Shown piece by piece: positions 17,829 to 46,816 of a stretch of DNA of 64,000 nucleotides; position 1 is the first letter of the stretch; each line of letters starts with the position of its first letter. Location of the stretch: assembly GCA_017503015.1 (NCBI GenBank), contig JAFVTX010000031.1, positions 14,022 through 78,021 of the forward strand, in the 5' to 3' direction. The translations under genes were made by a program, and so were the position numbers. The notes below the pieces were generated by a model. The model was not told the origin of the DNA and ran no database searches. It saw only the letters and a list, made by a program, of their open reading frames with translations. This DNA is from Fibrobacter sp. (GTDB taxonomy: Bacteria; Fibrobacterota; Fibrobacteria; Fibrobacterales; Fibrobacteraceae).

Positions 17829-17855
17829 AATGAACTTTTTAAGGGTAATGCCGAA

Positions 17856-20619: not shown

Positions 20620-20699
20620 AACCCATACTCCCTAAATTACCCAACCATAAATATATATTTTTTTTTACGAATAGAAGGCGCAGGCAAGGACCCGCTATC

Positions 20700-20817
20700 A
20701 AAAAAGCGCCTGTAAACAAAATTTTCAGGCATATTTCGCCCCAAAGAAACGTCTTATACATAGACGGGACCTTCCCCGTCTGCGATACGGGCGCGTTCCC
20801 GCATTTTTGGAATAAAA
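20700..20817 (+). promoter_or_regulatory. Conserved 5' flank shared by Rpn-like genes (copy 2)
   Basis: In gene orientation: ctgtaaacaaaattttcaggc ... aaagaaacgtcttatacat. Confidence 0.45.
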
Positions 20818-25000: not shown

Positions 25001-28000
25001 GTCGGCCAAGCTGAATCCCACATACTGATAGTTCATGATGGCGTGGTTGTTCCCTATAGAGGAGAGGATGAACACAGCCTTGTAATAATCAGATTCTTCG
25101 AAGACACTGCTGCTGTAGAAATTGTCAGTGATAGCCTTGATCTTGAGGGAGTCGCTTCCCTTGAGTGTGACAGAGAGCATGACCATACTGGAAGTAGTTA
25201 CGCTAGCCTTGGAATAGTTGTCTTTAGCGAGTTCAACTTCGGCACTGCAACTGCCGGCAGCATCAAGGCATACCCGTGCGGCAAGGTGGCCTGAAGTGTT
25301 CTCGTAAACATTCAATCTCCAGAAGCTGCTTCCATCGTCTTCGGCTCGGAACAGGAATCCCGAATTCTTGATTCTCGGAGAATCCTTTCCATAGCTAGAA
25401 GTTGCATGGGGCGGCTGGAACAGGGCCTTAAGTGTACCATGGATACCCGCATGTACGGTGCTCATGATTTTGACACCTTCCTTTGGGGCGTCCTTTGACG
25501 CCACAATGTACCCCTGGTAGGGGTCCCTCTCAACATAGGTCGTGTCGCTAATGTGTCCGCTGGCAAAGCTCCACTTGGCACTAGCTCCACTTCCGATGCA
25601 ATACGCGGTTTCCGTTTCTCCCGGCTTGCTACAGGCATGCCGGTCGTTGTGTTGAGCGGTTTTCCTGAATTCGTCAAAGAAGCAATGATTGTCATTCTCG
25701 CCGAAATGGGCGTAGATGATAGCGTTATTGTCCTTCACTGTGAATCCGTTTTTATCTTCGCTAGCACTGAACTTGGCACTGGAAATCGGATCGGTCGTGG
25801 GGCAGGTCATGCCTCCATTGTTATCGCAGGTCCAATAATTGAAATCCTTGTATAGATCCCTATCGATACTTATGAACACGGAATCTCCGTCAAAAACGGA
25901 AACAGGACAAACGACATCCTTGTTCACATAGTCGCAATCGGTTGTGTGACCTCCAGCAACGACCGTTACTTTGGGCGAGCCCACTATACTACCGGTAAAC
26001 TTAATACCAATCTTGCGGAGCTTCGCCTTAGCAGTAGCGCATAGGGAGATATTCTCGTTGACCTCAATTGGGGCCGATTTGGAAGCCTCGGGAATGATAA
26101 CCACGCACTCACCCGCATCATCGCCCTCCGTAAGGGAGAGTGTGCCTGTACCGCTGGTGACCACATTCCACAGGCTGTTCCTTGTTTCCGTAGAGTAACC
26201 CGGTGACCAGGAGGGTTTTACCCATTCCTTCGATGTGCTGTTGATGATTGGGCAATCGGGCCAAGCATTTATCATTGAATTTTCAGGACAAAGGTCGGCA
26301 TTCTCGCTCTTGTTACAGAAATCTTTGATGTCGTTTATATCGCTTACATTGCAACGCGTGAGACTTGCCGTGGAAGCCATGAGAAGCGTCGATGTCCATG
26401 GACTTGCCAACTGGTATGCATCTCCAGGTTGCAAGGTGAAGGTCACCGAGCCATTGGAGGCATCCCCAGCCGGCGTCAGAGTGAACAGCGTGGGAGTTTG
26501 GTGATTGACATCCACCCCAAAGTGGAATGTGTAAACATCATTCTCCGGCTCTACGTTGTCCTTCACTTGCAGAGTCCAGCCAGAAGGGACGGAAGATCTG
26601 TGCACCTTGACATTAATTTCGTTGGAGTGGGGTGGGAGATTTATCTTGACTTCGTGGGGGGCGCCTGCAGTGAGGTTGGCTGAAGGTTCCAAGAAGTTGA
26701 CTGGCGGGGCTGCACTCTGCGAGCCCTTGACCCAGACATAGAAGGGAACCGACTTGTAACCATCCGCAGAGGCGGTACAGGTATAAAGTCCCTCATCCAG
26801 TTTGGCATCCCCAGAAACCAGGTTGGAACTTATATTAAGCGAGGGGGAGCAACTATAACTAGCCGTTGCTTTGCTGACATTAGCTCCATTCAACGGAAGC
26901 ACATTAAAGTAGTCGATAAGTTTCCCGTAAGGATCCTTGGTCAGGTAAATGATACGGGGCAACACGATAAACGACTGGCTCAACGGGGAGATTCCATTGG
27001 CCGCATCAACAACCGGCACCATCTCGCTGGATTCGTATTGCGTTTCCAAAGTCACGCCTAACTGCGGAGCCATGGAAATGTAGTAGGGGTCCTTACCTGC
27101 GGACTTGAACACGGCCTGAGTATTTCCGCCTGCTGCTGCAGCGGCGGCGTTTACAGCGTCGGCACCACAGGGCTTACCCTTATCGCAGACAATACCGTTT
27201 TTACCCAAATCCTTCAACAATTCTCTGTCTGTAACAAACGCTGCATTTTCGAATCGATTGTTAGCACACTTTGCCGCCGGGAAATAGAGCGTTCCCGTAA
27301 GCTTGATTTTACTTCCCTCACTAAATCCCTGATCCGTGTCCATGAAGATGAACACATGCTTGATAGTTGCTGAAGTGGATAACTTATCCGCACCCTTCTT
27401 TAGGTAAAGCAAGACAAAAGAACCAGGATCAGAGGTGCCCATGATACCGTTGTCGGAGGCCGTTATCAAGGAGTTTTGTGCAGTAATTTGATCCTTGACG
27501 ATGATAACAAATTTTCCAACCAATGTTCCACTGATATTGTTCATCGCACCTGGTATTTTTACAACCAGATATTCCTTATTGTACAGCTTGTTGGCCCGAC
27601 TGGTAGAGTCTAGATAAAGCCTCGAATAACAAGCATTCAAGGAATCAACCAGCGTACTATTCCACCCCGTTGCAGTGGGGCAGGCATTCTTAGATTCTGC
27701 GAAAGATTCTAGCTCATCCAGGGGAATTTCTATGGGGTCATCCACAAAGTAATCTGCCCCGCATTTTTGTGTAGTTAGCTTATTTCCCCAAATTTTCCTA
27801 CATTTTTCTTCAACGGCATCCCCACAGGCAAAATCAGGCTTTGCAACCCAATCCGACTTGTTGTGCATGTTTCCGCCGATTTTGAACCAGGGGTTCACCC
27901 CGCAAGTCGGTCGGTTGGCGTCTCCGCTACTGCTCTTGCAGAAGGGGGATCCCGTAATTCTGGACTCTTCGTAATTGTAGAAATTATAGGTGGCGTTTGT

Positions 28001-29980
28001 GGCATCATAAAAATACTGTCCACCGACCTTGTACAGGCCTGCTGTTACGGCACTCTTGAAATAATTGTCAAACTTGTTATTGTCATTGGACCACATCGGT
28101 ATGGGGAACCAGCCACCACCCTTGTCGCCCTTCCACCCGCTAATGGGAGTTACATCGTACTTTCTCCAGTCGCTAGTGCTATAGGTCTTTTGTTCAAAAG
28201 CGACAAAGCCCGTTTGTGTTTTTGTGTTATCAAAAATGTAATATCTATCGCTGTTTACCGGTCGACCAGAAGGGAAAATACCAGAAACCGTGGCAGTCGT
28301 CCAATCTTCCCAGCCTTTAGAATAGTCGGTCCACTCGTTCAACCCTTCAGAACCATACGTATATGTGATGTATTCCCCATTGTCTTTAGCCAGCTCGCCG
28401 CAAACCAACGGCCCTTCTGTCGGGTTCTTCTTTATAAAATGACCGATATTACTCCCCGGATTCACCCTCTCCCAGTTGTCGGAATTATCACCATAAATTC
28501 TGAACCTCTTGTTTTCCGGACAGCGTTTTTTTCCGGTTTCTGTGTAGGTCTTGCTGGAAAGACTTGAATAATCTGACGACGCGCGGGCTGATTTGATATA
28601 GACCTCGGAGCCGGACGTACCCATAACTATCTGGTCGTAATTATCCGTATTTTCCTGGAAATTATTTATTCTGACTACGCTTTCCGTAGCGCATCCGATA
28701 AAGTCCTCATCTCCATAGTTACAGGATTTTGTACCCGTTAGCACGCATCCGATATTTTCTTTTTCGACCCAATACAGGTTATTACCGTTTGTCTTATAAT
28801 TCCTTGCACAAGCATAAGTCTTACCTCCATTATACCAGTCGTAATCCTTGCACTGGCATGAAGAATACGCCTGACATGTGCAACCACTTCTAGCTGTAGT
28901 CTTGGCCGTACTACCCCAACCCAGGGGTTGCTTTCCCGGCATCCATACATTGCCTTCCACAACAAAAGTACTATTGTTGTTAAAATGAAGAACTACCGCA
29001 CCGTCTTCATCAACACAGAGGTTTCCTTTTATCTTGGCTTTTTTTGACCTGTCATACGAAGACATGTATCCCTTTAAGGTAACATTGCTATCTATTAGCA
29101 AATTATAGTTAGCATCAGTAGTTATGCCTGTGGCCCCGAGGATGACATCTCCACTAAAGTAGGCGCTCCCCGACAGATCAAAGGAACTTGCGGTGGGGAT
29201 TCCTGCATCCTTACCCACAAACAAATCTTTGCCCTTAATACCGTCGTTTTGTGCAGAGAGATTCCCGCCAATACAGGTAAGCTCGCCCAGATTCATGCCG
29301 GATCCGCTCAAATTTGCGTTTCCCGTGACAATCCAGTTACTCGTTGCTGTCGGCGGGTTCACGCCTGTTTCTTCAGTACCCCAGTTTCCATTTACTACGG
29401 CCGACTCATAGTCCGTCCCCGTTCCCGAAACACCGCCTCCAAAGTATGAGTAGTCAAAGTCAGGAGGATCACCATCGTATTCCTCCTGTACCGTGGGTTT
29501 GTCTACCTGGTAAAGACCCGATATATTGAGAATGGCCACCTCGGTGTGCCTGGCTAATCCGTCCCGAGAAATGCCTTCAGAGAGAATTTTCACCTTGTAC
29601 AAGCCGTTTTGTGTAGTTACACCTGTGACCCACACATGGTGGTCCTGGGTCCCCCCCTGGACAAAGCTCCTTATCTGGTTATCCAGGTTGATTGGTTTCT
29701 TTTGGGACTTCGGTTCGTCAGTATTCAAATCATAGATGTACTGCCTAATAAGGGCTCCCACATCGTTGGCGTGGAATGTCATCCAAGCGCGAGTATTCTC
29801 GATACCCGCTACGGCACTCTGGTAGGCCTCCCGCTGCATCATACGGCTGGCACTGGAGTGGCCCTCGCTGGTAATCCACTTGTAGGTGGCGGTGGCCGCG
29901 ATGGTGGCCACCAGCATGAACATGAGAACGGTGACTAAGGAGACACCCGCTCTTTTCTTGTTTTTCATTCCAAATTTCAT
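22064..29980 (-). CDS. Giant PilX-N-terminal-domain protein (2638 aa), left cassette; candidate pilus-tip adhesin
   Basis: N-terminus KKRAGVSLVTVLMFMLVATIAATATYKWITSEGHSSASRMMQREAYQSAVAGIENTRAWM is PilX_N-like. Strong RBS AGGAGGGAATTATG. Very Cys-rich, with many Ig-like repeats. Paralog of 38082-45227. Confidence 0.8.
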   Translation of the reverse strand: MKFGMKNKKRAGVSLVTVLMFMLVATIAATATYKWITSEGHSSASRMMQREAYQSAVAGIENTRAWMTFHANDVGALIRQYIYDLNTDEPKSQKKPINLDNQIRSFVQGGTQDHHVWVTGVTTQNGLYKVKILSEGISRDGLARHTEVAILNISGLYQVDKPTVQEEYDGDPPDFDYSYFGGGVSGTGTDYESAVVNGNWGTEETGVNPPTATSNWIVTGNANLSGSGMNLGELTCIGGNLSAQNDGIKGKDLFVGKDAGIPTASSFDLSGSAYFSGDVILGATGITTDANYNLLIDSNVTLKGYMSSYDRSKKAKIKGNLCVDEDGAVVLHFNNNSTFVVEGNVWMPGKQPLGWGSTAKTTARSGCTCQAYSSCQCKDYDWYNGGKTYACARNYKTNGNNLYWVEKENIGCVLTGTKSCNYGDEDFIGCATESVVRINNFQENTDNYDQIVMGTSGSEVYIKSARASSDYSSLSSKTYTETGKKRCPENKRFRIYGDNSDNWERVNPGSNIGHFIKKNPTEGPLVCGELAKDNGEYITYTYGSEGLNEWTDYSKGWEDWTTATVSGIFPSGRPVNSDRYYIFDNTKTQTGFVAFEQKTYSTSDWRKYDVTPISGWKGDKGGGWFPIPMWSNDNNKFDNYFKSAVTAGLYKVGGQYFYDATNATYNFYNYEESRITGSPFCKSSSGDANRPTCGVNPWFKIGGNMHNKSDWVAKPDFACGDAVEEKCRKIWGNKLTTQKCGADYFVDDPIEIPLDELESFAESKNACPTATGWNSTLVDSLNACYSRLYLDSTSRANKLYNKEYLVVKIPGAMNNISGTLVGKFVIIVKDQITAQNSLITASDNGIMGTSDPGSFVLLYLKKGADKLSTSATIKHVFIFMDTDQGFSEGSKIKLTGTLYFPAAKCANNRFENAAFVTDRELLKDLGKNGIVCDKGKPCGADAVNAAAAAAGGNTQAVFKSAGKDPYYISMAPQLGVTLETQYESSEMVPVVDAANGISPLSQSFIVLPRIIYLTKDPYGKLIDYFNVLPLNGANVSKATASYSCSPSLNISSNLVSGDAKLDEGLYTCTASADGYKSVPFYVWVKGSQSAAPPVNFLEPSANLTAGAPHEVKINLPPHSNEINVKVHRSSVPSGWTLQVKDNVEPENDVYTFHFGVDVNHQTPTLFTLTPAGDASNGSVTFTLQPGDAYQLASPWTSTLLMASTASLTRCNVSDINDIKDFCNKSENADLCPENSMINAWPDCPIINSTSKEWVKPSWSPGYSTETRNSLWNVVTSGTGTLSLTEGDDAGECVVIIPEASKSAPIEVNENISLCATAKAKLRKIGIKFTGSIVGSPKVTVVAGGHTTDCDYVNKDVVCPVSVFDGDSVFISIDRDLYKDFNYWTCDNNGGMTCPTTDPISSAKFSASEDKNGFTVKDNNAIIYAHFGENDNHCFFDEFRKTAQHNDRHACSKPGETETAYCIGSGASAKWSFASGHISDTTYVERDPYQGYIVASKDAPKEGVKIMSTVHAGIHGTLKALFQPPHATSSYGKDSPRIKNSGFLFRAEDDGSSFWRLNVYENTSGHLAARVCLDAAGSCSAEVELAKDNYSKASVTTSSMVMLSVTLKGSDSLKIKAITDNFYSSSVFEESDYYKAVFILSSIGNNHAIMNYQYVGFSLADRDFKIYGIGWQSDDYGSECFDGPPSVKCSFAAVAVDGVVPTYGTGLGQSNDYQRPWVGHSGWFDSKDCSVSYSYVAGSATNDATVDSENGYYFDESGVGAHGYRDNNDQDVKTAYATLANCKYAKTDVLAWESTVDPAHCGPFWTGKFNECQADVSLLANERSVIAGETYTPTFTPAKDLRGIKDLAITLSNDYADVDLEVWLISNSAAWGGEDHESRHVRITGSGSTITKHFSVAASTSAYEDFADNAAGFDPENIVAMSFRNNGSNPVTITSAEALCKNSVRFDGCTVTRAGETEWKVTLSVPENADKLAKVRLKADVNGASYLSDIERDYAGLEYGIADPGAFANAGKTYTFSAQVYSELNNYTSEWVACTCPGNDCSIGSITCGDATLQHNKMNASNEIEYGEGNPEYSFELSGCPTKGCAYEVYLNGTKISECTNAQAASTGCSKNPHVVGPTQMAVSDNLYKYEVRNPAGSATEIKSLDACDQTFKVVEHVKDPVTCSITSGTTNASAADLGGSAEIPSNKISVSCPEGTCTYTVKENGSTVGSGTYSDTYGFSISNGAIEAGSHTYTASVTRDSEGAVDCSGSYTINYPLNLDCDSWTDPGASTPVAAGTTITPVKTKAGSSNTSYTGCGGNCTYNITKGGTSVYGGEVSSYDGYSATNTFTDANGSGKVTYTLTVSHPDVATTKSCNFDVTYASPTSVCHCADYCGSGCENNIVTGNIDQNPFTGCVFVASATRLDVNQGYTVNGSTPSNGQLCYDNATNCANALANYTAVDGGWYFNIANKYVSIRSSGYNPCAPIVAPSISSCPTVQVGIGKSASITPVAPACFALEECNYSIKKSGVSIASGTWRSGKISFTDAGATSAGNITYSLTLTNSKGSDSENCTVGYLGPISLTNGSSNVDVPCGVDIKAKATCSGNVVISCSGAFYKTVGTQSADKNNTLNYYAAWQNLNNTYTTSCDTDGVMKCSIGCW

Positions 29981-29989
29981 AATTCCCTC

Positions 29990-31366
29990 CTAGTCGCGGG
30001 GTCCGTTGCTTGGGATAGGTATAACTACAATAGTTTCGCCGGTTTCTCCCGCGCCTCGAGTAATCTGCAGCGACAGCTGCAAAGCCTTGATGTTCTGCTT
30101 GTCGGCCTTATGTGCTTCCGGGTTGTAAGCCGTTTCAAAACTGTAGTTCAAGCCGGGTACTTCCGTAACCTTCAGGTTCTTGATTTTCAGTATCGCCTGA
30201 GAAGCCTTCGGCGAATAGCAGGCAAAGGTAAATGCAATGCAGCCAGAAACATCTGTCGGTACGGTGAACCTCATATTACGCTTGCCTGTTCCTTGTGAGT
30301 TATACGGTGGAAAAAACAAAAAGTCGTCGAGCATTCTCTTTGGCGGGTCAGCGGCAGCGTCCATCAGGTAATTACCGTTAATATCCCTGAGCCCAACGGA
30401 CATGTGGTCCTCGCCAGGCACAAAGACCTGCAAGGGTATGTTGGGATCCGAGGACATGTTGGTAAAGGGTATTTCGAAGGATATCTCGTATGTGTGCCCC
30501 TTTTGGAATGTAATCAGACCCAGATTTTGGCAGTATTCCTTCCAAGATCCCGCATCGCCGCTTGATATAACAGCGAATGCCTGGTTCATGTTGTTATGGT
30601 CGGACTTGAGCTGTCCCTGGGCGTTGTCATAGTTGGTATAGAACTGCGAAAGCGTAATCTCTTCTCCAGCCCCCATTTCTTCTTTGCCATCGTTTTCCGA
30701 CTTGAAGTTGAAGAAATGCTCGTCGCCAGTCCTTGGTATCAGGCGGAACGAGTTCCCAGGAGTCGGGAAAATCTGCTCCTCGGCCCCGGTTACGGGGTTC
30801 GGAGCCACAACCTGGAACAACCCCACATTCGTTGAAATTTCCACAGCATCTGCGCGGGCCGCATCGGCGCTCCTTGACGGACACGCCTCTTCGGCCTCGC
30901 CCGAAACCGTACGACAACTGCGTTTAAGAACCTGGCCCTCATCAACAAACCAGCAAATCTCTTCCACAGCCTTGTAAAGGCCGTTGGCATCATAACGGGC
31001 CCGCCTAAAGTACAGAACACTCTGCCCATTAAGGGGAATCGTATCTATAAAGAATGAGGAAGAATCCCCGCTGGCCTTGTCCCAATAGACATCATCATAA
31101 ATACTGCTAAAGTTGTCACCAAAGGAACTTCCATCAGTGGCATCGCCCGCCTCTTTTGAACTCTTTGCCCCCATCTGAGATGCATCTGCTTTAAAAAGCG
31201 TTGCTACATTCTCGACCTCCTGGGTGGCCTTGAGGATATTCTGGGTGCGCACACGGAACTTGGTGGAGTCGCTGAAGGCGCGCCCCGCCACGATGACAAT
31301 AATGCCGAGGATGGCCATATAGACCATCAGTTCCATGAGGGTGAACCCGTTCTTGCGTCTAATCAT
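29990..31366 (-). CDS. PilW/GspJ-like minor pilin, left cassette
   Basis: Prepilin leader and cleavage/methylation motif MIRRKNG|FTLMELMVYMAILGIIVIVAG with Glu at +5. Position after the PilV-like gene, with an ATGA overlap. Confidence 0.75.
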   Translation of the reverse strand: MIRRKNGFTLMELMVYMAILGIIVIVAGRAFSDSTKFRVRTQNILKATQEVENVATLFKADASQMGAKSSKEAGDATDGSSFGDNFSSIYDDVYWDKASGDSSSFFIDTIPLNGQSVLYFRRARYDANGLYKAVEEICWFVDEGQVLKRSCRTVSGEAEEACPSRSADAARADAVEISTNVGLFQVVAPNPVTGAEEQIFPTPGNSFRLIPRTGDEHFFNFKSENDGKEEMGAGEEITLSQFYTNYDNAQGQLKSDHNNMNQAFAVISSGDAGSWKEYCQNLGLITFQKGHTYEISFEIPFTNMSSDPNIPLQVFVPGEDHMSVGLRDINGNYLMDAAADPPKRMLDDFLFFPPYNSQGTGKRNMRFTVPTDVSGCIAFTFACYSPKASQAILKIKNLKVTEVPGLNYSFETAYNPEAHKADKQNIKALQLSLQITRGAGETGETIVVIPIPSNGPRD

Positions 31367-31872
31367 CTGATTACCCCCGAAACTGAAATGGACTGGATGG
31401 AACCTTTGTAGGGCCAGCTAACCGTGACATTGACCCGCTTGGCGTAAACATGAGCAGCGCCATTTTCACCCACAAGAAGGCTACTCGAATTCGCCTCAAA
31501 TGTTTCGTCGCCGGAAACTTTTACATTGACTGTGTAAGTAATGCTTATGTTGTGTTGCACAATTCCTGGCTGACCTTTCCACTCCTGGACAATTTCTTGC
31601 GGAGGAAGGCTCCAAGTCCCGTCCTCGTTGTTGGTGAGGTGAGCGTCCGTAAAGCTCGCAAGCCCCTTGGAACTCAAATCGTCAATCACATTTTGGGCCA
31701 CCTCGGTAGCGCCATCGCGGCCACGGATACGCAACAAGGCGTCACGGTTGCCCGTCTGCAGGTTGCAGACCGCGGTGTACAGAAGTCCAAGCACCAGTGC
31801 CGCAACAATGACCTCCATGATGCCAAAACCGCGCTTGGGCTTGCACAAAACTGGTAAACGCTGAACGAACAT
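31363..31872 (-). CDS. PilV/GspI-like minor pilin, left cassette
   Basis: MFVQRLPVLCKPKRG|FGIMEVIVAALVLGLLY. The ATG at 31872 is chosen by comparison with the paralog; the ORF track start is 31911. Confidence 0.7.
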   Translation of the reverse strand: MFVQRLPVLCKPKRGFGIMEVIVAALVLGLLYTAVCNLQTGNRDALLRIRGRDGATEVAQNVIDDLSSKGLASFTDAHLTNNEDGTWSLPPQEIVQEWKGQPGIVQHNISITYTVNVKVSGDETFEANSSSLLVGENGAAHVYAKRVNVTVSWPYKGSIQSISVSGVIR

Positions 31873-31882
31873 TGTGGCCTCC

Positions 31883-32422
31883 CTATAGCTTCGACCAGTC
31901 ATCCGATCCACTCTTCAACTTGGATATAAACACATTTTTAGTCCTTTCTTTAACCGCGGCTGCATACAAGTCGCGGTCGCCATATTTCACCACTATGTAA
32001 CCCTCGTAAGGGGCGGTAGAAAGTCCTGGACGCGGGATAAAGGATGCCTGGGCTTCCGTCGAAGATACTAGGTTATAGCCATCAAGCCCACCAAAATCAC
32101 TAGTGATAATCGAGGACTGAGCATCAAGCACCAAACTATCGATAGGGGTGTCGAAATTGCCAGAGGCACACGACGCTCTGTAAGTTTTGAGCATTCTGTC
32201 CCCGTCATTTCGGACGCACAGAGAATCGTTAATCTGGCGAGCCTTGTTGGCAACCATTTCTAGGTAGGCCGCTACATTGAGAGCCGAATCCTTGGTTCGA
32301 GCATTAGCCACCGCACTTTGAAACCCGACCACACCCATGCCCGATAGGATGCCCATAATAGAAATCACCGCCAGTAACTCGACCAGCGTGTATCCCGCTT
32401 TTTTATGTGGTTTGCTCTGCAT
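31883..32422 (-). CDS. GspH/FimT-FimU-like minor pilin, left cassette
   Basis: MQSKPHKKAG|YTLVELLAVISIMGIL followed by ALNVAAYLEMVANKARQ (GspH/FimT-like helix). ATG at 32422; the ORF track start 32446 is a GTG inside the conserved leader. Confidence 0.7.
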   Translation of the reverse strand: MQSKPHKKAGYTLVELLAVISIMGILSGMGVVGFQSAVANARTKDSALNVAAYLEMVANKARQINDSLCVRNDGDRMLKTYRASCASGNFDTPIDSLVLDAQSSIITSDFGGLDGYNLVSSTEAQASFIPRPGLSTAPYEGYIVVKYGDRDLYAAAVKERTKNVFISKLKSGSDDWSKL

Positions 32423-32520
32423 ATACAGTTCCCTATTCAAAATCACCCTACGACCAAAAACTGGGTGGGCACACCTCCCTAAGCCCGGAAACCCAGTTTC
32501 CCTTCCTGCTTAAAATAGCT
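32413..32520. repeat. Inner inverted repeat, left copy (leader plus first 3 codons of the left cassette)
   Basis: The reverse complement matches 35554-35661 with 2 mismatches in 108 nt by hand alignment (90 nt uninterrupted). Identity stops abruptly at both ends. Confidence 0.9.
32456..32502 (-). promoter_or_regulatory. Identical leader hairpin and T-run in the left cassette 5' leader
   Basis: Mirror copy of 35572-35618 within the inner inverted repeat. Confidence 0.45.
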
Positions 32521-32528
32521 TTTTTTTT
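32520..32528. repeat. T9 (A9 on the coding strand) homopolymer at the inner edge of the left inverted repeat
   Basis: In cassette orientation: gcgAAAAAAAAAgcTATTTTAAGC. An A-tract directly upstream of a TAT-rich -10-like box. The right-hand copy lacks the tract (acatacaagcTATTTTAAGC). Confidence 0.8.
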
Positions 32529-32560
32529 CGCAAATAGTTCACATTTTTTTACAAAGGGGA

Positions 32561-32590
32561 CAAAAACCGCCTTTTCGAGGTAAAAAAGGC
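32561..32590 (-). terminator. Terminator after the central Rpn gene, insulating it from the left cassette
   Basis: Minus strand: gccttttttacctcgaaaaggc followed by ggtttttg. Confidence 0.6.
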
Positions 32591-32650
32591 AGTTTGTGAC
32601 GAGTGATGGGGTGGAATACGCTTGTTTAACGCAAGAAATGCGTCAAATGT

Positions 32651-33610
32651 TTATTTTAGCGCTTCTGCTTTGGCGATAATGCTCTTGGAAACGCCCTGGG
32701 ACCGGAGCAGTTCAATCACTTTGTCTATTCCTTTCTCCATTCCTTTCTCCATTCCTTTCTCCATTCCCTTTTTCATGCCTGCACGACGGCCTGCCCGCTC
32801 TGCGGCACGTCGAGCATCGCCGGCACTTACAAATCCCAGTCTTTGTCCTATGCTTTTCCATGCCATCTGCAATTCCTCCAGGCTTTCCTCGTCGATGAAC
32901 TCTCCTAAATATAAATTAATTTTGTCAAGAAAGACATTCTTGCCGTAATTCCCCAACATCCAAAGACGCTCTCCTATGGCTCGCGCCAAGTCTGACAGTC
33001 CTCGCTTATCAAAGGCATATTTCAGTATAAGCGCTCCAATCGCTGCTTCCACATTGTCGTCGGCGAGACACGATTCATCGTTCAGTTCAGACATGTTCAC
33101 CATCACGAGTTCAAACGGAAGATCTTTTCCCTGAAATTTTGCGCGATTCTTACGCTTGAAGGCTGCCACCGGGTCCCAGCTTCGTTTTCCGTTGTAGATT
33201 ATTATCGCTTTGGTCGGATACCAGCGGAATTCCGGGTCGTTTTTGTTTACCATTACATTGAACGCATATCGCCCCACCTGGTCGAGAAGTGCTCTGTCGG
33301 AAGCGGACTTGTGTTCTAACAGGATTCCCACGAACACATCTTTGCCCCTATACGCCTTCGCCGTGAACGCGAGATCCGATTCGCCCTTCTCGCCAACTTC
33401 GTTGTAAAAGCCGGGAAACAGCGTAAGTGTGTCGAGGTTCACGTCTTCGAGCATGGCATCTAGCTCCCTGTTGGCTTCACGTGCAAGGGTCAGGAGAGTC
33501 TTTGCGTTGGTCGGTTTGGAATAGATGTAACGGAAGAACCCGTCATGGTTCCTTCTTGTTGGATTGTTGCGTTTCTTCAAGTTTCTTGAATCCACCTGCT
33601 TGTTATTCAT
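32651..33610 (-). CDS. Rpn family recombination-promoting nuclease / putative transposase (YhgA-like)
   Basis: N-terminus ...RRNHDGFFRYIYSKPTNAKTLL resembles the RpnA/YhgA HDxxFK start. ILLEHKS nuclease block. C-terminal (GMEK)x3 repeat. Confidence 0.75.
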   Translation of the reverse strand: MNNKQVDSRNLKKRNNPTRRNHDGFFRYIYSKPTNAKTLLTLAREANRELDAMLEDVNLDTLTLFPGFYNEVGEKGESDLAFTAKAYRGKDVFVGILLEHKSASDRALLDQVGRYAFNVMVNKNDPEFRWYPTKAIIIYNGKRSWDPVAAFKRKNRAKFQGKDLPFELVMVNMSELNDESCLADDNVEAAIGALILKYAFDKRGLSDLARAIGERLWMLGNYGKNVFLDKINLYLGEFIDEESLEELQMAWKSIGQRLGFVSAGDARRAAERAGRRAGMKKGMEKGMEKGMEKGIDKVIELLRSQGVSKSIIAKAEALK

Positions 33611-33735
33611 TTCATTGTCGTGTGCGTCCCGTTAAACGGTAGGGCGGAATGGCCCTACATTGTATAAACGCTTTTTTGGGCCAAAACTTGCCTGAAAATT
33701 TTGTTTACGTACGATGTTTTACAAATGAAAGGGGA
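33611..33735 (-). promoter_or_regulatory. Conserved 5' flank shared by Rpn-like genes (copy 3)
   Basis: Plus strand: ggcggaatggccctacattgtataaacgcttttttgggccaaaacttgcctgaaaattttgtttacgtacgatgttttacaaatgaaagg. Confidence 0.45.
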
Positions 33736-33740
33736 TGGCG

Positions 33741-33781
33741 ATGGTAGGGATAGGAGATCCCGGCACTGTGGCCGGGATGAC
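33741..33781. repeat. Hairpin repeat with gatggtagggataggagat leader upstream of the central Rpn gene
   Basis: gatggtagggataggagatcccggcactgtggccgggatgac. The same leader recurs at 46688 and 46749. Confidence 0.75.
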
Positions 33782-34155
33782 AATGAAAGAGCGCGAGTAA
33801 AACGAGGAAGATGTTCGTCATGTTCGTCCTGGAACACTGGTGGTGTGAGCGCTTGCAAATGTTGTTTTTTGAGAATTGGACCTATAAAACGGCGCGTTTT
33901 GCCACTTTTATATGCCCCTGAAATCAAAAAAATGCCTCGGAGTGGCCTTTTTGAGGCATCATGCTCAGAAAAAGGGCCGAAAAACGGTCTGTTTTGACGG
34001 AATTCTGTTAGTTTGTATGGAAAAAGGGCATATAAGAAGACATTTTTCCCAGTTTTATAGGTACATGTCGAACGCACCGCCTTCTTGGAGACATATAAAT
34101 CGCCTCAAAAAACTGGTTTTATAGGTCCGTCGGGAGAAATCGGGGGTGTTAGGGG

Positions 34156-34244
34156 GTCCCGGCACTAGGCCGGGATGACAACCCCCTAGGGGAAGGGGGT
34201 GATGAAAGACACGGCTAGATGGCGGGTCGTGGCCCGCCATGACG
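34156..34244. repeat. Two hairpin repeats upstream of the recombinase gene
   Basis: gtcccggcactaggccgggatgac and ctagatggcgggtcgtggcccgccatgacg. Confidence 0.75.
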
Positions 34245-34345
34245 CCGTGGCTGCAATCAGGGGGAAGGCTTTCCCCCTTTTTTAGGTAGGAAAGAGTCGC
34301 TCCTTTTGGCGAAAAACGGGGATTTTGCGGGTGGTGTGACATTCC

Positions 34346-35356
34346 GTGCACACCGCTTTGCCTATTATTTGGGGCATGGAGTGGAAACGTTTGTCGGTGG
34401 TACAGCGGCACAAGAGTCGCGGGATAAAGACCTGGTACCTCCGGGAAAATTCGGGCGGCGTGATTTCGTACAGGTCGCTGGGGACCACGTGCAAGAGGGT
34501 GGCGGAGGAGTGCCTGCAGAGGCTTCTGGTGCTGCGTTTCGCCATGCCCGGGGAGGTGCTGGAGGGGGTGCCCATGGAGGGTGCTATGCGGGAGTTTCTG
34601 GAGCGTCCGGGCCTGAAAATGGGCAGCGTGGAGCAGTACCGCCGTATTCTGGAGCATTTTTCGGGGTGGTGCAAGGCCCAGCGGGTCCATGACCTGCTTT
34701 CTGTGGACGAGAGGCTCGCGCGGAAGTACTATGCGTCGCTCCGGGGGAAGTCGGCGCGGCACAAGTGTCGCGTGTGCGGGTGCTTTTTGAGCTGGGTTTA
34801 CCGGGAAAATCGGGTGGAGCGGGCCCAGCCTTTCAAATTCGTGGATTTTCGGCGGGTGGCGAAGGTGGAAAGGGACGCCTGGAGTGTCGATGAGGTGGAG
34901 CGCATCGTGGAGACGGCGCCTACGGCCGAGATGCGGATGCTGTGGGCGCTGATGGCCTACGCGGGGCTTCGGGTCCACGAGGCGGCGGGGCTTAGGCAGG
35001 CCGACATTCTGGGGGACCGTTTCCAGGTTGTGGGAAAGGGGGACAAGTTCGCGGTGCTGCCCATAAACGGGCGGCTCCGGCGGGAACTGGAGCGGTTCGG
35101 AAGCCTGGGAGACGGGCTGAAAATCGACAAGCAGAAATCTATTCGTGAAATCAAGAAGGTCTGCGCGCGGCTGAAGATTGAAGGCTGGGCGTCGAACCAC
35201 AAGTTCCGTCACAGTTTCGCGACGAATCTCGCGGCCAGCGGGTGCCCTGTGGCGGTGGCCATGCGGCTGTTGCGGCACAGTTCCAGCGCCATGACGCTGG
35301 ACGTTTATACCCACATTGTGCCCGCCGATATGCGGGAGTGGGCGGAAAAAGTGTAA
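34346..35356 (+). CDS. Tyrosine site-specific recombinase (XerC/D-phage integrase family)
   Basis: Catalytic pattern AGLRVHEA (Arg), HKFRHSFAT (HxxR), LLRHSS and LDVYTHI (Tyr). Alternative ATG start at 34376. Markedly GC-rich relative to its neighbours. Confidence 0.85.
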   Translation: MHTALPIIWGMEWKRLSVVQRHKSRGIKTWYLRENSGGVISYRSLGTTCKRVAEECLQRLLVLRFAMPGEVLEGVPMEGAMREFLERPGLKMGSVEQYRRILEHFSGWCKAQRVHDLLSVDERLARKYYASLRGKSARHKCRVCGCFLSWVYRENRVERAQPFKFVDFRRVAKVERDAWSVDEVERIVETAPTAEMRMLWALMAYAGLRVHEAAGLRQADILGDRFQVVGKGDKFAVLPINGRLRRELERFGSLGDGLKIDKQKSIREIKKVCARLKIEGWASNHKFRHSFATNLAASGCPVAVAMRLLRHSSSAMTLDVYTHIVPADMREWAEKV

Positions 35357-35373
35357 AAGTTGCGCCGAACTGG

Positions 35374-35505
35374 GCGCAAAAATCATGCCAAATACAGGTG
35401 GGCGCGGACCTGGCTCCGGTTAGCTTCGATTAGCTCCGGGTGCAAAAATCGAGCCAAATGCGGATAAACGCGGGTAGGCTCAGACGCAAAAACTGTGCCC
35501 AAATA
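35374..35505 (+). promoter_or_regulatory. Three direct ~20-bp iterons between the recombinase gene and the right inverted repeat
   Basis: gcgcaaaaatcatgccaaata (35374), gtgcaaaaatcgagccaaatg (35440), acgcaaaaactgtgcccaaata (35484). GCAAAAA cores are 66 and 44 bp apart. A weaker copy gcaagaaatgcgtcaaatg lies near 32625-32645. Confidence 0.5.
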
Positions 35506-35553
35506 ATGCACACAACGCGCCAATTCCTTTATTCTAAAGGGAAAATACATACA

Positions 35554-35661
35554 AGCTATTTTAAGCTGGACGGGAAACTGGGTTTCCGGGCTTAGGGAGG
35601 TGTGCCCACCCAGTTTTTGGTCGTAGGGTGATTTTGAATAGGGAACTGTATATGCAGAGCA
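35554..35661. repeat. Inner inverted repeat, right copy (leader plus first 3 codons of the right cassette)
   Basis: agctattttaagctggacgggaaactgggtttccgggcttagggaggtgtgcccacccagtttttggtcgtagggtgattttgaatagggaactgtatatgcagagca. Confidence 0.9.
35572..35618 (+). promoter_or_regulatory. Leader hairpin followed by a T-run (possible attenuator) in the right cassette 5' leader
   Basis: gggaaactggg ... cccagttttt arms enclose an inner gggc/gccc stem. Competing small palindrome ggaaactgggtttcc (35573-35587). Confidence 0.45.
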
Positions 35662-36188
35662 CATCGCATAAAAAGGCAGGCTTTACGCTAGTGGAAATGC
35701 TGGCGGTTATTTCCATTATGGGTATCCTTGCTGGCATGGGGGTTGTCGGTTTCCAAACCGCCGTGGCGCACGCCCGCACTAAAGACGCCGCCCTCAATGT
35801 GGCTGCCTTCTTGGAGCGCACGGCCAACGAGGCCCGCAAGTTGAACACCTCCCTGTGTATCCGCAATGACGGCACCAGCAAGCTGGTGGTCTACAAGTCC
35901 GCCTGCAATGCCGGTACCATGGGCGATGCTGTGGACCAGCTGGTTCTGGAAAGTCAGGTTACAGTTGTTGTTAGCGATGTGGATGATGTTGGCGGTGGCG
36001 GAATCAACTTAATCACTTCGACAGACGCCAAAGCCACGTTCAAACCGCGCCTGGGGCTTTCATCGGCACCCTATGAAGGGTATGTAGTCGTGAAGTACGG
36101 CAGTGAACGCGGAGCGGCGGTCAAGGAAAAGACAAAGAATTCGTTCAAACCCAAGTGGAGCCCTTCGGGGTCCTGGTCGGATTTGTAG
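35652..36188 (+). CDS. GspH/FimT-FimU-like minor pilin, right cassette
   Basis: MQSTSHKKAG|FTLVEMLAVISIMGIL...ALNVAAFLERTANEARK. Paralog of 31883-32422. Confidence 0.7.
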   Translation: MQSTSHKKAGFTLVEMLAVISIMGILAGMGVVGFQTAVAHARTKDAALNVAAFLERTANEARKLNTSLCIRNDGTSKLVVYKSACNAGTMGDAVDQLVLESQVTVVVSDVDDVGGGGINLITSTDAKATFKPRLGLSSAPYEGYVVVKYGSERGAAVKEKTKNSFKPKWSPSGSWSDL

Positions 36189-36198
36189 GGGGCCTACG

Positions 36199-36705
36199 AT
36201 GCACGTGCAGAATGACATAAAGCAATCCCGCAAGCGTGGCTTCGGCATCATGGAAGTCATGGTGGCGGCTTTGGTGCTTGGCCTCTTGTATGCTGCAATC
36301 TGCCAGCTACAGAAAGGTAACCGCGATGCGTTGCTGCGCATCCGTGGACGCGACGGCGCTACTGAGGTGGCTCAGAATGTGATTGACGATTTGAGCTCTA
36401 AGGGACTTGCAAGTTTTGCAGACATGAACCTCACCGAAAACGGTGACGGGACCTATAGCCTCGAGCCACAGACAATTGTCAGGGAGTGGAAAGGTCAACC
36501 GGGAACAGTACCTTATACCATAAGCATCGATTATACGGTCAATGTGAAAGTCTCTGGTGACGACGAATACAAGGCAAACACAGGGAGCCTTCTTTTGGGA
36601 GCAAACAGCGTCTCCCACATTTATGCCAAACGGGTGGACGTCACAGTTAGCTGGCTCTACAAGGGGTCCACCCAGTCCATCTCTGTCTCGGGGGTAATCA
36701 GATGA
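36199..36705 (+). CDS. PilV/GspI-like minor pilin, right cassette
   Basis: MHVQNDIKQSRKRG|FGIMEVMVAALVLGLLY. Closely similar to 31363-31872 along its whole length. Confidence 0.7.
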   Translation: MHVQNDIKQSRKRGFGIMEVMVAALVLGLLYAAICQLQKGNRDALLRIRGRDGATEVAQNVIDDLSSKGLASFADMNLTENGDGTYSLEPQTIVREWKGQPGTVPYTISIDYTVNVKVSGDDEYKANTGSLLLGANSVSHIYAKRVDVTVSWLYKGSTQSISVSGVIR

Positions 36706-38072
36706 TTAGACGAGAAAAAGCCGGTTTCACCCTCATGGAACTGATGGTCTACATGGCCATTTTGGGCATTATCGTTATTGTGGCTGGCCGTGCCTTTAGC
36801 GACTCCACTAAATTCCGCATACGTACCCAGAACATACTCAAAGCTACCCAGGAGGTTGAAAATGTGGCGACGCTGTTCAAGTCAGATGTGGCTCAGATGG
36901 GAGCGAAGAGCTCAAAAGAAGCAACCGTAGCTGGAGGAAATGACTCTTTTGAAAAAATCACAAACTGCACTTCCACTGCAGATTGCATTTACATGGACCC
37001 CAACAACGCTTCAGCGAACAATAAGGATTCTTCTTCTTTTGCAATCACAAGCAAGGAAAAGAATAAATATGACAGCATTGCGTTATTGCGCATTCGCTAC
37101 GATGAACAGGGAAAATACCAAGCGCTAGAAAAAGTGGAGTGGTACGTAGAGGATGAAGTTTTGAAACGAAGCTGCCGACTAATGCAAAAGATAAGCAGCC
37201 TTAATGTAACCGACGACCCATGTTCCAATGGGCCAAATTCAACACCTACACCTGTTGAAATGGCGACAGGTGTAAAAAAATTTACTGTCATTCCGGGATT
37301 GCCAAATATCCGCAGCAACGCTGCCGCAGGCTATACAGAAGAACAACTGTTTCCTCCTGGAGGGGGTGAATCCTTTAAATTTCTTTCTCGCTATGGTGAG
37401 ACAGACTATATCATACTTTCCATTCTGGATAATGGAACTTCGTCTACTTTGAGCGGATTCAAGCGAAATTACGACCTTACCGATGCGACAATAACCACAG
37501 AAAGTAAACAAATGAACCAGGTTTTTGCGGCAACAAACGAGGACTTGGAAGGCGATTGGAAGGATCGATGCTACAAGTTTAAGCTAGAGCCGGGAATAGA
37601 GTATGAAATCTCTTTTGATATGCCGTATCCTACATCCGCAAAAGACATGGCACAACTTTTCGTTCCTGGTCGAGACCACATGTCTGTGGGGTTCCGTGAC
37701 ATTAATGGGGATGCACCTGCAACAATTGACGACTTCCTCTTTTATCCGCCAACAAGCAACGAATCCGTTGGTAAGCGAGCTATGCGCTTTACAGTACCAG
37801 ATACACTAAAAAATCAGTGTTTGGCATTCACATTTTCAACTTACTCACCAAAAGCTGCAGAAGGGACAGTCACTATTTCAAATCTAAGGCTTAGGCGAGT
37901 TGCCAGTTCCACCTACAATTTTAATCCATCAGTTAGTTTGCCCATTAAGGACAAGAAAAATGTCAAGGCTTTGAAAATCAATCTGCAGATTGCTCGAGGC
38001 GACAAGAACCCCGGTGAAACAGGTGAAATTGAAGTGGTTATACCAACTCCCAGCAATGGCCCCAGGGACTAG
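36702..38072 (+). CDS. PilW/GspJ-like minor pilin, right cassette
   Basis: MIRREKAG|FTLMELMVYMAILGIIVIVAGRAFSDSTKF. N-terminal ~60 aa and the C-terminal ...VVIPTPSNGPRD are conserved with the left copy; the middle is diverged. Confidence 0.75.
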   Translation: MIRREKAGFTLMELMVYMAILGIIVIVAGRAFSDSTKFRIRTQNILKATQEVENVATLFKSDVAQMGAKSSKEATVAGGNDSFEKITNCTSTADCIYMDPNNASANNKDSSSFAITSKEKNKYDSIALLRIRYDEQGKYQALEKVEWYVEDEVLKRSCRLMQKISSLNVTDDPCSNGPNSTPTPVEMATGVKKFTVIPGLPNIRSNAAAGYTEEQLFPPGGGESFKFLSRYGETDYIILSILDNGTSSTLSGFKRNYDLTDATITTESKQMNQVFAATNEDLEGDWKDRCYKFKLEPGIEYEISFDMPYPTSAKDMAQLFVPGRDHMSVGFRDINGDAPATIDDFLFYPPTSNESVGKRAMRFTVPDTLKNQCLAFTFSTYSPKAAEGTVTISNLRLRRVASSTYNFNPSVSLPIKDKKNVKALKINLQIARGDKNPGETGEIEVVIPTPSNGPRD

Positions 38073-38081
38073 GAGGGAATT

Positions 38082-41000
38082 ATGATGTTCGGAATTCAAA
38101 ATTCAAAAATAGGAACGAAAGCCGGTGTATCCTTAGTTACCGTACTTTTGTTTATGCTGGTAGCCACCATCGCGGCTACTGCTACCTACAAGTGGATTAC
38201 CAGCGAAGGTAAATCTAGCACGAGTCGTATGATAGAACGTGAGGCGTACCAAAGCGCTATTGCGGGTATTGAAAACGCCCGTAGCTGGATGACATATCAT
38301 GCAAACGATGTAGGTGCGTTGATTAAGCAATATAAAGAAAATGGTAGTAAGCCAGTGAAACTGGATGGACAGTTGGCTGAGTTTATGCGTGCGGGACAAA
38401 CTTTTCATGTTTGGCTTACTGGCGTAAATACAGAAAGTTCAACATATAAGTTGAAGATCGTATCACAGGGCATTGCTCGCGATGGCGGAGCAACACATAG
38501 CGAAGTGGCGATTCTTGATGTAAATGGGCTATACCAGGTAAAGATTCCCTCAGTAAAATATACAGGAGAGGCGATATTCAACGAGGCTTTCTTTGGTTCT
38601 GCAAAAAATGGAATCAGTCTAGAAGTGAACTCGGCGATTTTCAATGGCGATACAAAGTTCAACACAAAATTTAATGCATCTGATTACGTTATCGTTACAG
38701 GAAATGTTAACGTTAATAGCAATACGAATGTAGGGGACCTTTATGTTAAAGGAAATTTATGCTCTTGTACAAACCTTAATGTAAGTGGCAACACCTATGT
38801 AGAAAGTAAGATGTACATAAATGGAACACATGTATACAATGGTGACATTTATGCAAAAGGAGGAATAGACCTATCAAAGAAAGGCGCAACGGGGTGTCAG
38901 TGTAACACTGGCTATGGAGGCGATTTTACCGTTGGTGGAAATGTTTCAACAGAGGGGGATCTCGTAATGTCACGGGCAACCTCACCAAATGTAAATACAT
39001 TTGGTGGAAATCTCGTCTTAAAAAATGGTGCAAAAATCGATTTCCCTACTCTTTCGGAGTTCTCGTATAGCACTGCAGGGGGATTGCCGACTCAAACACA
39101 TATTAGCGGGAATGTTTTTCTAGATGGTGGATTTTCAAACGGATGGTTCATGGGATATGCAAGAGCTGGTCAGGTGTCGCTTACCTCCGCAGGAAAAACA
39201 TTTTACTCATCAACCCCAATGTATCGGGTTTCTGACGCAAATCAGAATGTCGTGTATAGTTGGTGGAAAAAAGCAAATAACGAGCATCAAGATACTGATA
39301 TTTCAGGAGACGCAGATGGGCTTTATGCAATCGATAAAGGTGGCCGCAGCTACAAACTGACGGCGGTTCCCAAAAACACTTTTTGCAACAAGTCTAATTG
39401 CCAACCTACAGATGATTTTTCTGACACTTACTTTTGGGACAACGCACATTTTTACTGTCCAAGTTGGGAACAAAAGGGATATTGGGAGGGATTTAACTGG
39501 ATTACGTATAGTGAGCCATCTGGATGTGGAAATTGTTCTTGGTATCAAGAAAAAGCTGGTGTAGGGGACCGGAATGGCTACAGATGGAAATGCGATACAA
39601 AAGGAAAGCAAACAAGCCGAAATGAAATCTTTGTGCAAATCAACGGAACATACTCCGCTACTAAACCGGATACCACCGGCTGGGGAGCAGACAGATTAAT
39701 GGACTATGAGAATAAAATTACTGATGAGAATACGGGGTCGGGATGCGGAACATCAAATCATGTAGCAGATCCTATACAGTTCAATAAGGATCTTCTCACC
39801 CACAACTTGATGCATACGAAAGATAAGCCGATGGAATGTGATGATGCGACGCTTTGGAATTCTTGGCCAAATGATCCCTGGGGTCAGTTGAACTCCTGCT
39901 ATCAGAAAGCGAAGGCGGCCAATAAGCTTTATGACAATCAGTGGCTTTTAATAAATGTCGGCAAGGCGGTTTGGGCAACGGAAAATTCTCATTATCTGCA
40001 AGGCAACTTTATAATTGTGATTGAAGGCGATAATGGCTACGGTTTATATTTGCCACAAACAAGGGCTCAGGCCGATGAGTCCCCTTCCCATGTAATTCTT
40101 TATTTCCCCAATGGATATGACAAAACGCTCAATAGCAAAGCATCCTCTGGCCCAATGAATTATTTTGTCTTCAGCGACGGAGATTTAAAGAATACACAGC
40201 TGGGCGGAACAAAAATCAACGGCTCGGTTTTCCTGACAGATTGCCATAATATGGGAAGCGACCAAACGATTAAAATCGAGTTCAATCCAGACCTTGTCGC
40301 AGCCCTTGAAGGCTCCGGCGTCATCTGTACTAATGATGGTACTGATAAGTGTTCTCCCAACGCAGGTAGCTCATCGTCCGCCGCTTCTTCGGCTTCTTCT
40401 GAAACAATTTCTTTCGGTGGAACAGACAGTTACTATATCTCTACAGCTCCGCAGCTTTCTATCACGCTGGAAAGCCAGTATGCAAACAACGAAAATGTTG
40501 AAAATATTGCTAGCACAGGGGAAGACTCTAAGGGGAGTTTCGTAGTTCTGCCCCGTGTCATCTATTTGCCAACCGACCCACCAGGAAAACTTGAACATTA
40601 CTACAATGTAATTCCGCTTAATTCAAAACAAACTGTGGAATCCCAGTCCATTACTTGTGAGGGCGGAATTCCGACCAGCGGCAAGCTTTACGACGGAACA
40701 ACATCCCTTGTAGAAGGCTACTACACTTGCAATGTGTCAGGAACTGTTTCTGGAGTAAGTTCCACCGTCCCGTTATATGTTGTAGTTCGTGGAACCGATG
40801 CCACCACCCCGAAGGTTACATTTGTTACAGATGATGTAGAATTGCCCAAAGAAGAGGCTACAACAGTTCAATTAACGGTCCCCAATACCACAGGAGCCGC
40901 CCAAACCTTCAAAGTCAAGGTAGCCCGTAGCGGAACAGAGACTGGCTGGACCGTAACGCCTATAAACCCCATCGGAGCGTGCGATGCAAATAGCGAATGT

Positions 41001-45347: not shown

Positions 45348-45446
45348 CGGATCCTCGCCTTCGCGAGGATGACGAAGGGCGATCCCCGCCTGCGCGGGGA
45401 TGACAAAGAGGGTGTGCGGGGATGACAATGGAGGGGCGAGGATGAC
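45348..45446. repeat. Hairpin-repeat cluster between the right cassette and the Rpn-like pseudogene
   Basis: gcggatcctcgccttcgcgaggatgac, gatccccgcctgcgcggggatgac, then half-sites ...gcggggatgac...gcgaggatgac. Confidence 0.85.
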
Positions 45447-45453
45447 GAGGGGA

Positions 45454-45463
45454 GGGGGGGGGG
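45454..45463. repeat. G10 homopolymer abutting the stop codon of the Rpn-like pseudogene
   Basis: ggaGGGGGGGGGGctattta. Confidence 0.8.
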
Positions 45464-46640: not shown

Positions 46641-46641
46641 A

Positions 46642-46790: not shown

Positions 46791-46816
46791 AAGAGAGTGT
46801 GCGGGGACGCCCGCCC

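Follow-up and report, generated by a model that had tools for sequence, protein, structure and literature searches.

What does a tyrosine recombinase gene do between two divergent pilin operons? This question is raised by a 64-kb stretch of DNA from a rumen Fibrobacter (64,000 nucleotides (nt) of contig JAFVTX010000031.1, assembly GCA_017503015.1; hereafter the window), in which a 3031-nt core (32522-35552) carrying the recombinase gene lies between two divergent paralogous operons for prepilin-type proteins. The core inverts: both of its orientations occur relative to the same flanking DNA. On balance, we consider it probable that the core is a site-specific invertible element and that one of its ends, marked by a run of nine A's (the A-tract end, as opposed to the recombinase end), completes a promoter for whichever operon faces it.

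Two pilin operons around a core bounded by short inverted sites

The main features of the locus, in window positions, are as follows (aa, amino acids).

22064-32422, minus strand: left operon, for three proteins of the prepilin type (179, 169 and 458 aa) and one of 2638 aa whose N-terminus is pilin-like
32413-32521, minus strand: left 5' leader, the long arm of the inverted repeat, matching the right leader at 107/109 nt
32511-32521, minus strand: left copy of the site, AAGCTATTTTA, which holds a -10-like TATTTT at 32512-32517
32522-35552, no strand: invertible core, 3031 nt, seen in both orientations relative to identical cassettes
34376-35356, plus strand: tyrosine recombinase gene (alternative GTG start at 34346; Pfam Phage_integrase, 7e-18)
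35553-35563, plus strand: right copy of the site, AAGCTATTTTA, inverted relative to the left copy
35553-35661, plus strand: right 5' leader, the long arm of the inverted repeat, matching the left leader at 107/109 nt
35652-45227, plus strand: right operon, for paralogous proteins of the prepilin type (178, 168 and 456 aa) and one of 2381 aa

Three proteins per operon carry the prepilin N-terminal methylation motif, and the giant fourth protein has a pilin-like hydrophobic N-terminus. Between the left and right operons the paralogues share 60, 78, 47 and 27-41% identity, the last value referring to the giant proteins. The coding parts of the operons are 75-83% identical, against near-identical leaders. 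Genes for a secretin and a PilT-like ATPase lie 10 kb from the locus. The relatives of the window are Fibrobacter metagenome-assembled genomes, and a 21-kb stretch of it is also present, identical, in ENA assembly ERZ28653793.

The catalytic residues of the recombinase (R199, K224, H275, R278, H301 and Y311; pattern R..K..HxxR..H..Y) were invariant among 21 homologues. The protein matches Xer-like models, but under the family cut-offs. It is the sole recombinase of the core and belongs to the tyrosine family, not to the serine (resolvase/invertase) or Piv-type enzymes, and its gene lay between the sites in every Fibrobacter locus examined.

To define the ends of the core, twelve further Fibrobacter loci were compared, with recombinases 60-99% identical (loci and contigs are given by L numbers). 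Both core ends were conserved, and the cassettes were joined to them at the same nucleotide whatever their leader type (A, B or C), the site standing at the start of each cassette's leader for all three types. Where the two leaders differ (L008, L020, L021, L023, L024 and L027), the sequence common to both joints was reduced to AAGCTATTTTA, and in these loci and L029 the identity of the joints extended over just 11-13 nt. In L029, whose recombinase is 60% identical, both copies of the site (at about 9735-9790 and 11075-11090) read AATCTATTTTA, having the same G>T change, as expected of a crossover region that needs identity. A search of the window with AAKCTATTTTA found only the two junctions, against 0.06 matches expected. 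The window thus holds two sites only; at least three cassette alleles occur in the population, in different strains. As the sites are inverted, recombination between them gives inversion and not excision.

Across five genomes of different GTDB species (L019-L023), the recombinase was 98-99% and the core DNA 91-93% identical to those of the window. The cassettes flanking these cores were only 65-80% identical, except for the right cassette of L021 (96% to that of the window). Taken together, this indicates that the switch is conserved and most of its cargo hypervariable.

Both orientations of the core in public assemblies

The exact protein sequences of the first pilins of both operons were looked up in public assemblies, and the DNA upstream of each was then read. 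The left cassette (97.6-99.9% identical) was joined to the A-tract end of the core in the window, L054, L056, L059, L060 and L062, and to the recombinase end in L055, L057 and L058. The right cassette (100% identical over up to 4.6 kb) was joined to the A-tract end in L063 and L068-L072, and to the recombinase end in the window and L065-L067. The contigs showing the two orientations stem from several studies and assemblers, and the flipped joints fall within the 11-nt site.

Contig L069 (ERZ14209545) fuses 1036 nt of the window core, without mismatch, to a right cassette that matches that of the window over 4301 nt with two mismatches. This is the exact joint that inversion of the window sequence predicts, and with the other joints of the A-tract end to the right cassette in independent assemblies it bears out the proposal of an initial annotation of this DNA that inversion would carry the A-tract half to the right cassette. 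In L069 the two single-nucleotide polymorphisms that distinguish the leaders remain with the cassette, which places the exchange within the 14-nt AAGCTATTTTAAGC, outside the long identical repeat in which an assembler could switch. A third cassette, 'B', with an unrelated leader, was 98.9% identical between L055, where it stands at the A-tract end, and L063, where it stands at the recombinase end. The repeat in these two genomes is only 11 nt, which rules out misassembly by repeat collapse for the cassette-B joints.

Several caveats apply to the evidence for inversion. No contig pair was seen that spans both joints with the same two cassettes and the core in opposite orientations. Most flipped contigs had cores 94-96% identical to that of the window beside cassettes 99.6-100% identical, and such cores mark other strains with a different partner cassette. 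Among the flipped contigs only L069 had a window-identical core, and it covers one joint. The partner cassettes were left plus right in the window, B plus left in L055 and B plus right in L063; such varied pairings beside diverged cores indicate that strains also recombine or exchange cassettes, the site forming the boundary. Both this divergence and the variety of pairings, along with the many assemblies that break at the repeat, would favour a different origin of the arrangements, namely homologous recombination, horizontal transfer of cassettes from strain to strain, or assembly errors over the 109-nt repeat. We regard this as highly improbable, as the joints fall at the same 11 nt with nothing else in common, too short for RecA-type recombination or k-mer collapse; the exchange in L069 maps to the 14 nt before the leader polymorphisms; both sites co-vary in L029; and the sites always enclose an intact tyrosine recombinase.

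A single-genome model of nested inversions with three cassettes was also considered and rejected, since it cannot yield the three pairings from sites in the required orientations; the pairings were attributed to strain differences. Flips inferred from cassette orthology between species were likewise dropped in favour of the exact-protein look-ups, the cassettes being only 65-80% identical. The reciprocal-best relations of this kind (left cassette of the window with the right cassette of L008; L002 with the A-tract side of L021) are suggestive only. A scan of JGI metagenomes with the leader pattern gave 0 matches. A second scan, with A8-GCTATTTTA, gave mostly chance matches and, among the matches listed, the junction signature only in L170 and L115. 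One contig assembled from a single sequencing run (L061; Logan SRR11784279) begins at the first base of AAGCTATTTTA and extends into the left cassette for 2.6 kb. Such a start would be expected if the assembly graph branched at the site's inner edge, a hint of both states in one sample.

A candidate promoter divided between core and cassette

Does inversion decide which operon is expressed? The two ends of the core differ in the following features.

32520-32528, minus strand: A9 tract, with seven A's in the core and the last two in the shared site
32537-32542, minus strand: -35-like hexamer GTGAAC, 19 nt upstream of TATTTT; TTGAAC, TTGAAA or TTGATA in relatives
32558-32596, minus strand: terminator-like hairpin (13-bp stem, then a U run; fold z-score -4.5), separating the -35-like hexamer from the stop codon of the nuclease gene
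32651-33610, minus strand: gene for an Rpn/YhgA-like PD-(D/E)XK nuclease (Transposase_31), an optional passenger of the core
35495-35543, plus strand: conserved block of the recombinase end, GTGCCCAAATAATGCACAC followed by the hairpin TTCCTTTATTCTAAAGGGAA (35524-35543), 9 nt before the site

On the minus strand, the left junction (32511-32542) reads ...TTTGTAAAAAAATGTGAACTATTTGCG-A9-GCTATTTTAAGCAGGAAGGG..., with A9 abutting GCTATTTTAAGC. In cassette orientation this is GTGAAC-N19-TATTTT, or TGAACT-N18-TATTTT (TGAACT at 32536-32541) in the register of the initial annotation, which had correctly described it, with A9 at the repeat edge, before the left leader. The right junction, ...AAAATACATACAAGCTATTTTAAGCTGGACGGG... 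at 35553 on the plus strand, has the same GCTATTTTAAGC box, preceded by ACATACAA and without an A-run, again as had been described. The further claim that the -10-like box belongs to the repeat, and the A-tract with its upstream elements to the core, also held: A-run and hexamer travel with the core, and TATTTT lies in the shared 11 nt.

In an alignment of 14 junction variants, the A-tract end had the order terminator-like hairpin with U run, TTTGTAAAA, TTGAAC-like hexamer, T-rich stretch, A-run and site. The distance from hexamer to TATTTT was exactly 19 nt in 11/11 distinct lineages, runs of A8, A9 or A10 being offset by adjoining bases. This included the lineage of L029, L027 and L028 (recombinase 60% identical), where a TTGAAA hexamer likewise stands 19 nt from TATTTT. 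Compensatory changes preserved the terminator-like stem in the various lineages. At the recombinase end, the alignment showed no TTGAAC-like hexamer at that distance; the hairpin there was preserved by different sequences in L003, L027 and L029, without a U run. In the window, the left junction was the only match to TTGAAC-N19-TATTTT with at most one mismatch. It is the conservation across lineages, and not this single-sequence match, that raises the feature above chance. The A-tract end thus resembles a promoter's upstream half, and the junction is likely to function as a promoter.

A terminator, hexamer and A-run on the core with TATTTT in the site is the arrangement predicted by a promoter split between the two, and a mechanism can be proposed on this basis. 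The core's own tyrosine recombinase, which we infer to be the catalyst, would exchange strands within the 11-nt inverted AAGCTATTTTA at both ends. The core end beside the Rpn-like gene, reading outward, would supply a terminator, a -35-like TTGAAC/GTGAAC and the A-tract, with the -10-like TATTTT supplied by the site and a transcribed leader by the fixed cassette. The complete promoter would thus go to whichever divergent operon faces the A-tract end, and the terminator would insulate it from the nuclease gene. The other operon would face the recombinase end, with its hairpin and without a -35. In the window orientation, the left operon (2638-aa protein) is predicted to be ON, with a start site at about 32503-32506 on the minus strand, and the right operon OFF. 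Each operon would supply minor pilins, three in number, and a giant tip protein of pilin-like character.

A number of points weigh against this. Relative to the Escherichia coli consensus, GTGAAC matches at 3/6 and TATTTT at 4/6 positions and the spacer is 19 nt, although Fibrobacter's own rules may differ. An E. coli-type promoter scan of 32300-35800 did not list the junction, with its 19-nt spacer and weak -35, a result that gives no support either way for a Fibrobacter promoter. The fixed 19-nt distance could reflect a protein-binding site for recombination instead of a -35. Read-through from the recombinase gene into the predicted OFF cassette could also occur, the hairpin at the recombinase end having no U run. 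Bacteroidetes-type promoter motifs (TTTG ... TAnnTTTG) were tried at the junction and rejected, the spacing being 22 nt and the -7 box wrong.

In an alternative that appears unlikely, the core inverts with an outward promoter that is not split (both of its elements, or an element of a non-sigma-70 type, lying within the core), TATTTT serves as crossover only, and the A-run and TTGAAC are binding sites for the recombinase or an accessory protein, kept at a constant distance from the crossover. TATTTT is invariant at both core ends, as a recombination site should be, the inner flanks of both sites are A-rich in the same register (AAAAAAAA versus ACATACAA), and 19 nt is a long spacer for sigma-70. 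Yet both sites must be bound and the recombinase end has no counterpart of TTGAAC at equal distance, and no better promoter-like pair was found between the terminator hairpin and the site.

We give little credence to a further alternative in which inversion does not control the pilin operons at all, each cassette having its promoter in or near its leader and inversion being incidental or regulating core genes. It draws on the 109-nt leaders, which are near-identical within a genome and have conserved, possibly regulatory hairpins. However, leaders of quite different sequence (A, B and C) stand behind the same junctions, and inspection of leaders A and B revealed no convincing promoter-like pair. 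The conserved asymmetry of the core ends (terminator, hexamer and A-run versus hairpin) would also lack an explanation.

The A-run lies between the candidate -35-like and -10-like hexamers, and the initial annotation had seen in it a site of slipped-strand variation. Such a run has a precedent in the vlp genes of Mycoplasma hyorhinis, in which a poly(A) promoter spacer phase-varies by tract length. As an independent switch, gain or loss of one A would alter the promoter spacer and turn the facing operon down or off. A survey of tract length provided one case in point: L056 and L059 have A10 where L060 has A9, the sole difference over 2806 nt, which fits slippage and equally a homopolymer error of sequencing or assembly. 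An A-run in the related lineage of L009-L018 (GAATTG-An-CTAATT, about 260 nt upstream of the recombinase) is A5, A6 or A7 depending on the sequencing run, and it is where several contigs start. Against this, the A-run was A9 in 23/25 window-lineage loci reaching the A-tract end (the window included, and several being the same contig fetched repeatedly), and its length is compensated across lineages to hold the 19-nt spacing, indicating selection for one length rather than variability. The claim of slippage at this tract is thus weakly supported, and an independent switch of this kind seems to us decidedly doubtful.

The same architecture had been claimed for three lipoprotein genes of the window (14694-20619, minus strand), which are indeed paralogues, with an FWAC lipobox in common and ~30% identity. 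The upstream boxes, all on the minus strand, are A8-gTATATATT (16562-16569), A9-TATATATTT (20658-20666) and AAAAAgcATATATTT (near 19120). An A-run then TATATAT does stand 40-55 nt upstream of each start codon. The likeness to the junction does not extend to the -35 regions, and only the first gene has a TTG-type hexamer, at 17 nt. All seven A-runs of at least eight in the window are intergenic, and three have a TAT box within 2 nt.

The reading with a split promoter can be extended, tentatively and with more doubt than confidence. The 11-nt site would then be both crossover and -10, the promoter being rebuilt from a mobile half (terminator, -35 and A-tract) and a resident half (-10, start site and leader), with slippage of the A-run as a means of tuning and the site as a population-wide exchange point for entire adhesin operons of the pilus tip. 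Any operon beginning with the site could dock, explaining the cassettes of 99-100% identity beside cores of 94-96% and the varied pairings.

Related switches and accompanying genes

Like described invertons, the element has inverted repeats (107/109), two observed orientations and an intact tyrosine recombinase within it. By analogy, the Fibrobacter system appears to work like a tyrosine-recombinase invertible promoter, closest in mechanism to the Mycoplasma vpma/vsa/vsp systems and in layout to sap of Campylobacter fetus. In the literature searched, no description of a pilin inversion switch in Fibrobacter was found.

Mycoplasma inversion systems include vpma of M. agalactiae with Xer1, vsp of M. 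bovis, and vsa of M. pulmonis with HvsR. The likeness lies in an Xer-like tyrosine recombinase encoded at the locus, a short site in the 5' region of each alternative surface-protein gene, and one promoter put before one gene at a time by inversion, the promoter in Fibrobacter being a candidate. In contrast to Mycoplasma, the Fibrobacter window has only two sites, which flank the recombinase gene itself; whole four-gene pilus-tip operons would be switched instead of single lipoprotein genes; the site apparently overlaps the -10 box; and the host phylum is Fibrobacterota.

Dworkin and Blaser reportedly placed the sap promoter of C. fetus on an invertible element between oppositely oriented sapA homologues. 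Both loci would have a promoter element (a candidate in Fibrobacter) between two divergent homologous cassettes with conserved 5' ends, and inversion, which selects the expressed cassette in C. fetus, is predicted to do the same in Fibrobacter. However, sap inversion uses long conserved 5' regions, is mainly RecA-dependent and has no recombinase in the element, whereas the Fibrobacter joints need 11 nt in several genomes and a tyrosine recombinase is encoded inside the element, which sets the locus apart from the sap type.

Other switches share part of the design. E. coli fimS (FimB/FimE), the RecV switches of Clostridioides difficile and Bacteroides invertons likewise combine short inverted repeats, a tyrosine recombinase, an outward promoter (again a candidate here) and a surface appendage, and in the fimS type the inner flanks of the two repeats are similarly asymmetric. 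Unlike fimS, a 314-bp ON/OFF element with the whole promoter inside and the recombinase genes outside, the 1.4-3 kb Fibrobacter element holds its recombinase gene, would toggle two operons and has a candidate promoter apparently completed by the site. Salmonella Hin/hix and Gin with the G segment of phage Mu also have the recombinase gene within the invertible segment; Hin resembles the proposed Fibrobacter switch in its outward promoter at one end and Gin in alternating adhesin (tail-fibre) sets. These are, however, serine invertases needing an enhancer and Fis, and Hin is a one-operon ON/OFF switch, whereas Gin leaves the promoter fixed and exchanges the coding ends behind it. Insertion sequences can have outward -35 boxes in their ends, and these form hybrid promoters with -10 boxes in flanking DNA. 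The Fibrobacter promoter would likewise pair a mobile -35 with a resident -10, arising by conservative inversion and not by transposition. The M. hyorhinis vlp genes resemble it in the homopolymer in the spacer, tract-length switching in Fibrobacter being thinly supported.

Fibrobacter is a main cellulose degrader of the rumen, its growth requires adhesion to plant fibre, and type IV pilus proteins have been implicated in this adhesion in F. succinogenes. The tip sets of the two operons are strongly diverged, identity between their giant proteins being only 27-41%. A switch between them that is reversible and heritable would let single lineages hedge adhesion specificities, or targets of phage or protozoa. 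That the cassettes are hypervariable between strains and the switch conserved suggests that the pilus tip is under strong diversifying selection. Overlap of the crossover site with the -10 box would be a compact means to strictly either/or expression. The locus would add a new case to a classical mechanism of phase variation, its ON/OFF outcome being a prediction from sequence. It also illustrates that assemblies break or differ at such switches, and that annotation pipelines miss them.

The nuclease gene is a passenger, as the minimal core of L027, L028 and L029 consists of the recombinase gene alone; in L008 it is replaced. An exact look-up of its protein gave 2 short contigs only, because gene calls differ: the gene was called as 267, 305 or 319 aa depending on the assembly. 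Its 3' end contains a 12-nt unit (TCCATTCCTTTC) in about four tandem copies (32712-32771), whose number could vary. Three Rpn-like PD-(D/E)XK genes (PDDEXK_2 / Transposase_31) occur in the window, one in the core (32651-33610, minus strand) and one at the outer end of each cassette (20818-21756, plus strand; 45464-46180, minus strand). Each is accompanied by a copy of a 77-nt element (CTTGCCTGAAAATTTTGTTTAC...; 33660-33736, 46568-46644 and 20700-20754), the copies being 84% identical, and short GGGGATGACAA-type repeats also lie near these genes (33722-33805 and 45374-46827). The 21.8-45.4 kb stretch as a whole is roughly palindromic.

For distant relatives of the recombinase in Verrucomicrobiota and Planctomycetota (23-29% identical, L031-L046), prepilin genes were not found nearby, which confines the association of this recombinase with pilins to Fibrobacteraceae. 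A 443-aa open reading frame (34055-35386, minus strand) is antisense to the whole recombinase gene, and in L066 and L067 it was called, as 419 aa, in place of the recombinase. In L063 (1138-2107) the recombinase gene is about 41 nt shorter than in the window (35136-35186) and four other genomes and was called as two open reading frames (194 and 103 aa), so that either the switch may be locked or the assembly wrong. Downstream of the recombinase in L009-L018 (Logan runs SRR292779xx; recombinase 60% identical), ...CTAACAAGTTAT was followed by three sequences, differing by run, one of which leads to T2SSF/T2SSE pilus-assembly genes. In L010, a similar sequence (AAAAAACTnnCAAGT) flanks both sides in direct orientation.

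A search of 32200-35900 against Rfam at E<=1 was negative, which means that the leader belongs to no described RNA family. A quite dissimilar leader type (AGAAAGACGGAATGCG...) occurs as well. The 99-nt leaders of the window (32423-32521, minus strand; 35553-35651, plus strand) contain a hairpin, GGAAAC-TGG-GTTTCC, nested in AAACTGGGT...ACCCAGTTT and followed by UUUUGG. When the leaders of L002, L020, L021, L023 and L024 were compared, this hairpin was kept in other leader variants by two-sided changes (GGATC..GGTCC, GGAAC..GTTCC).

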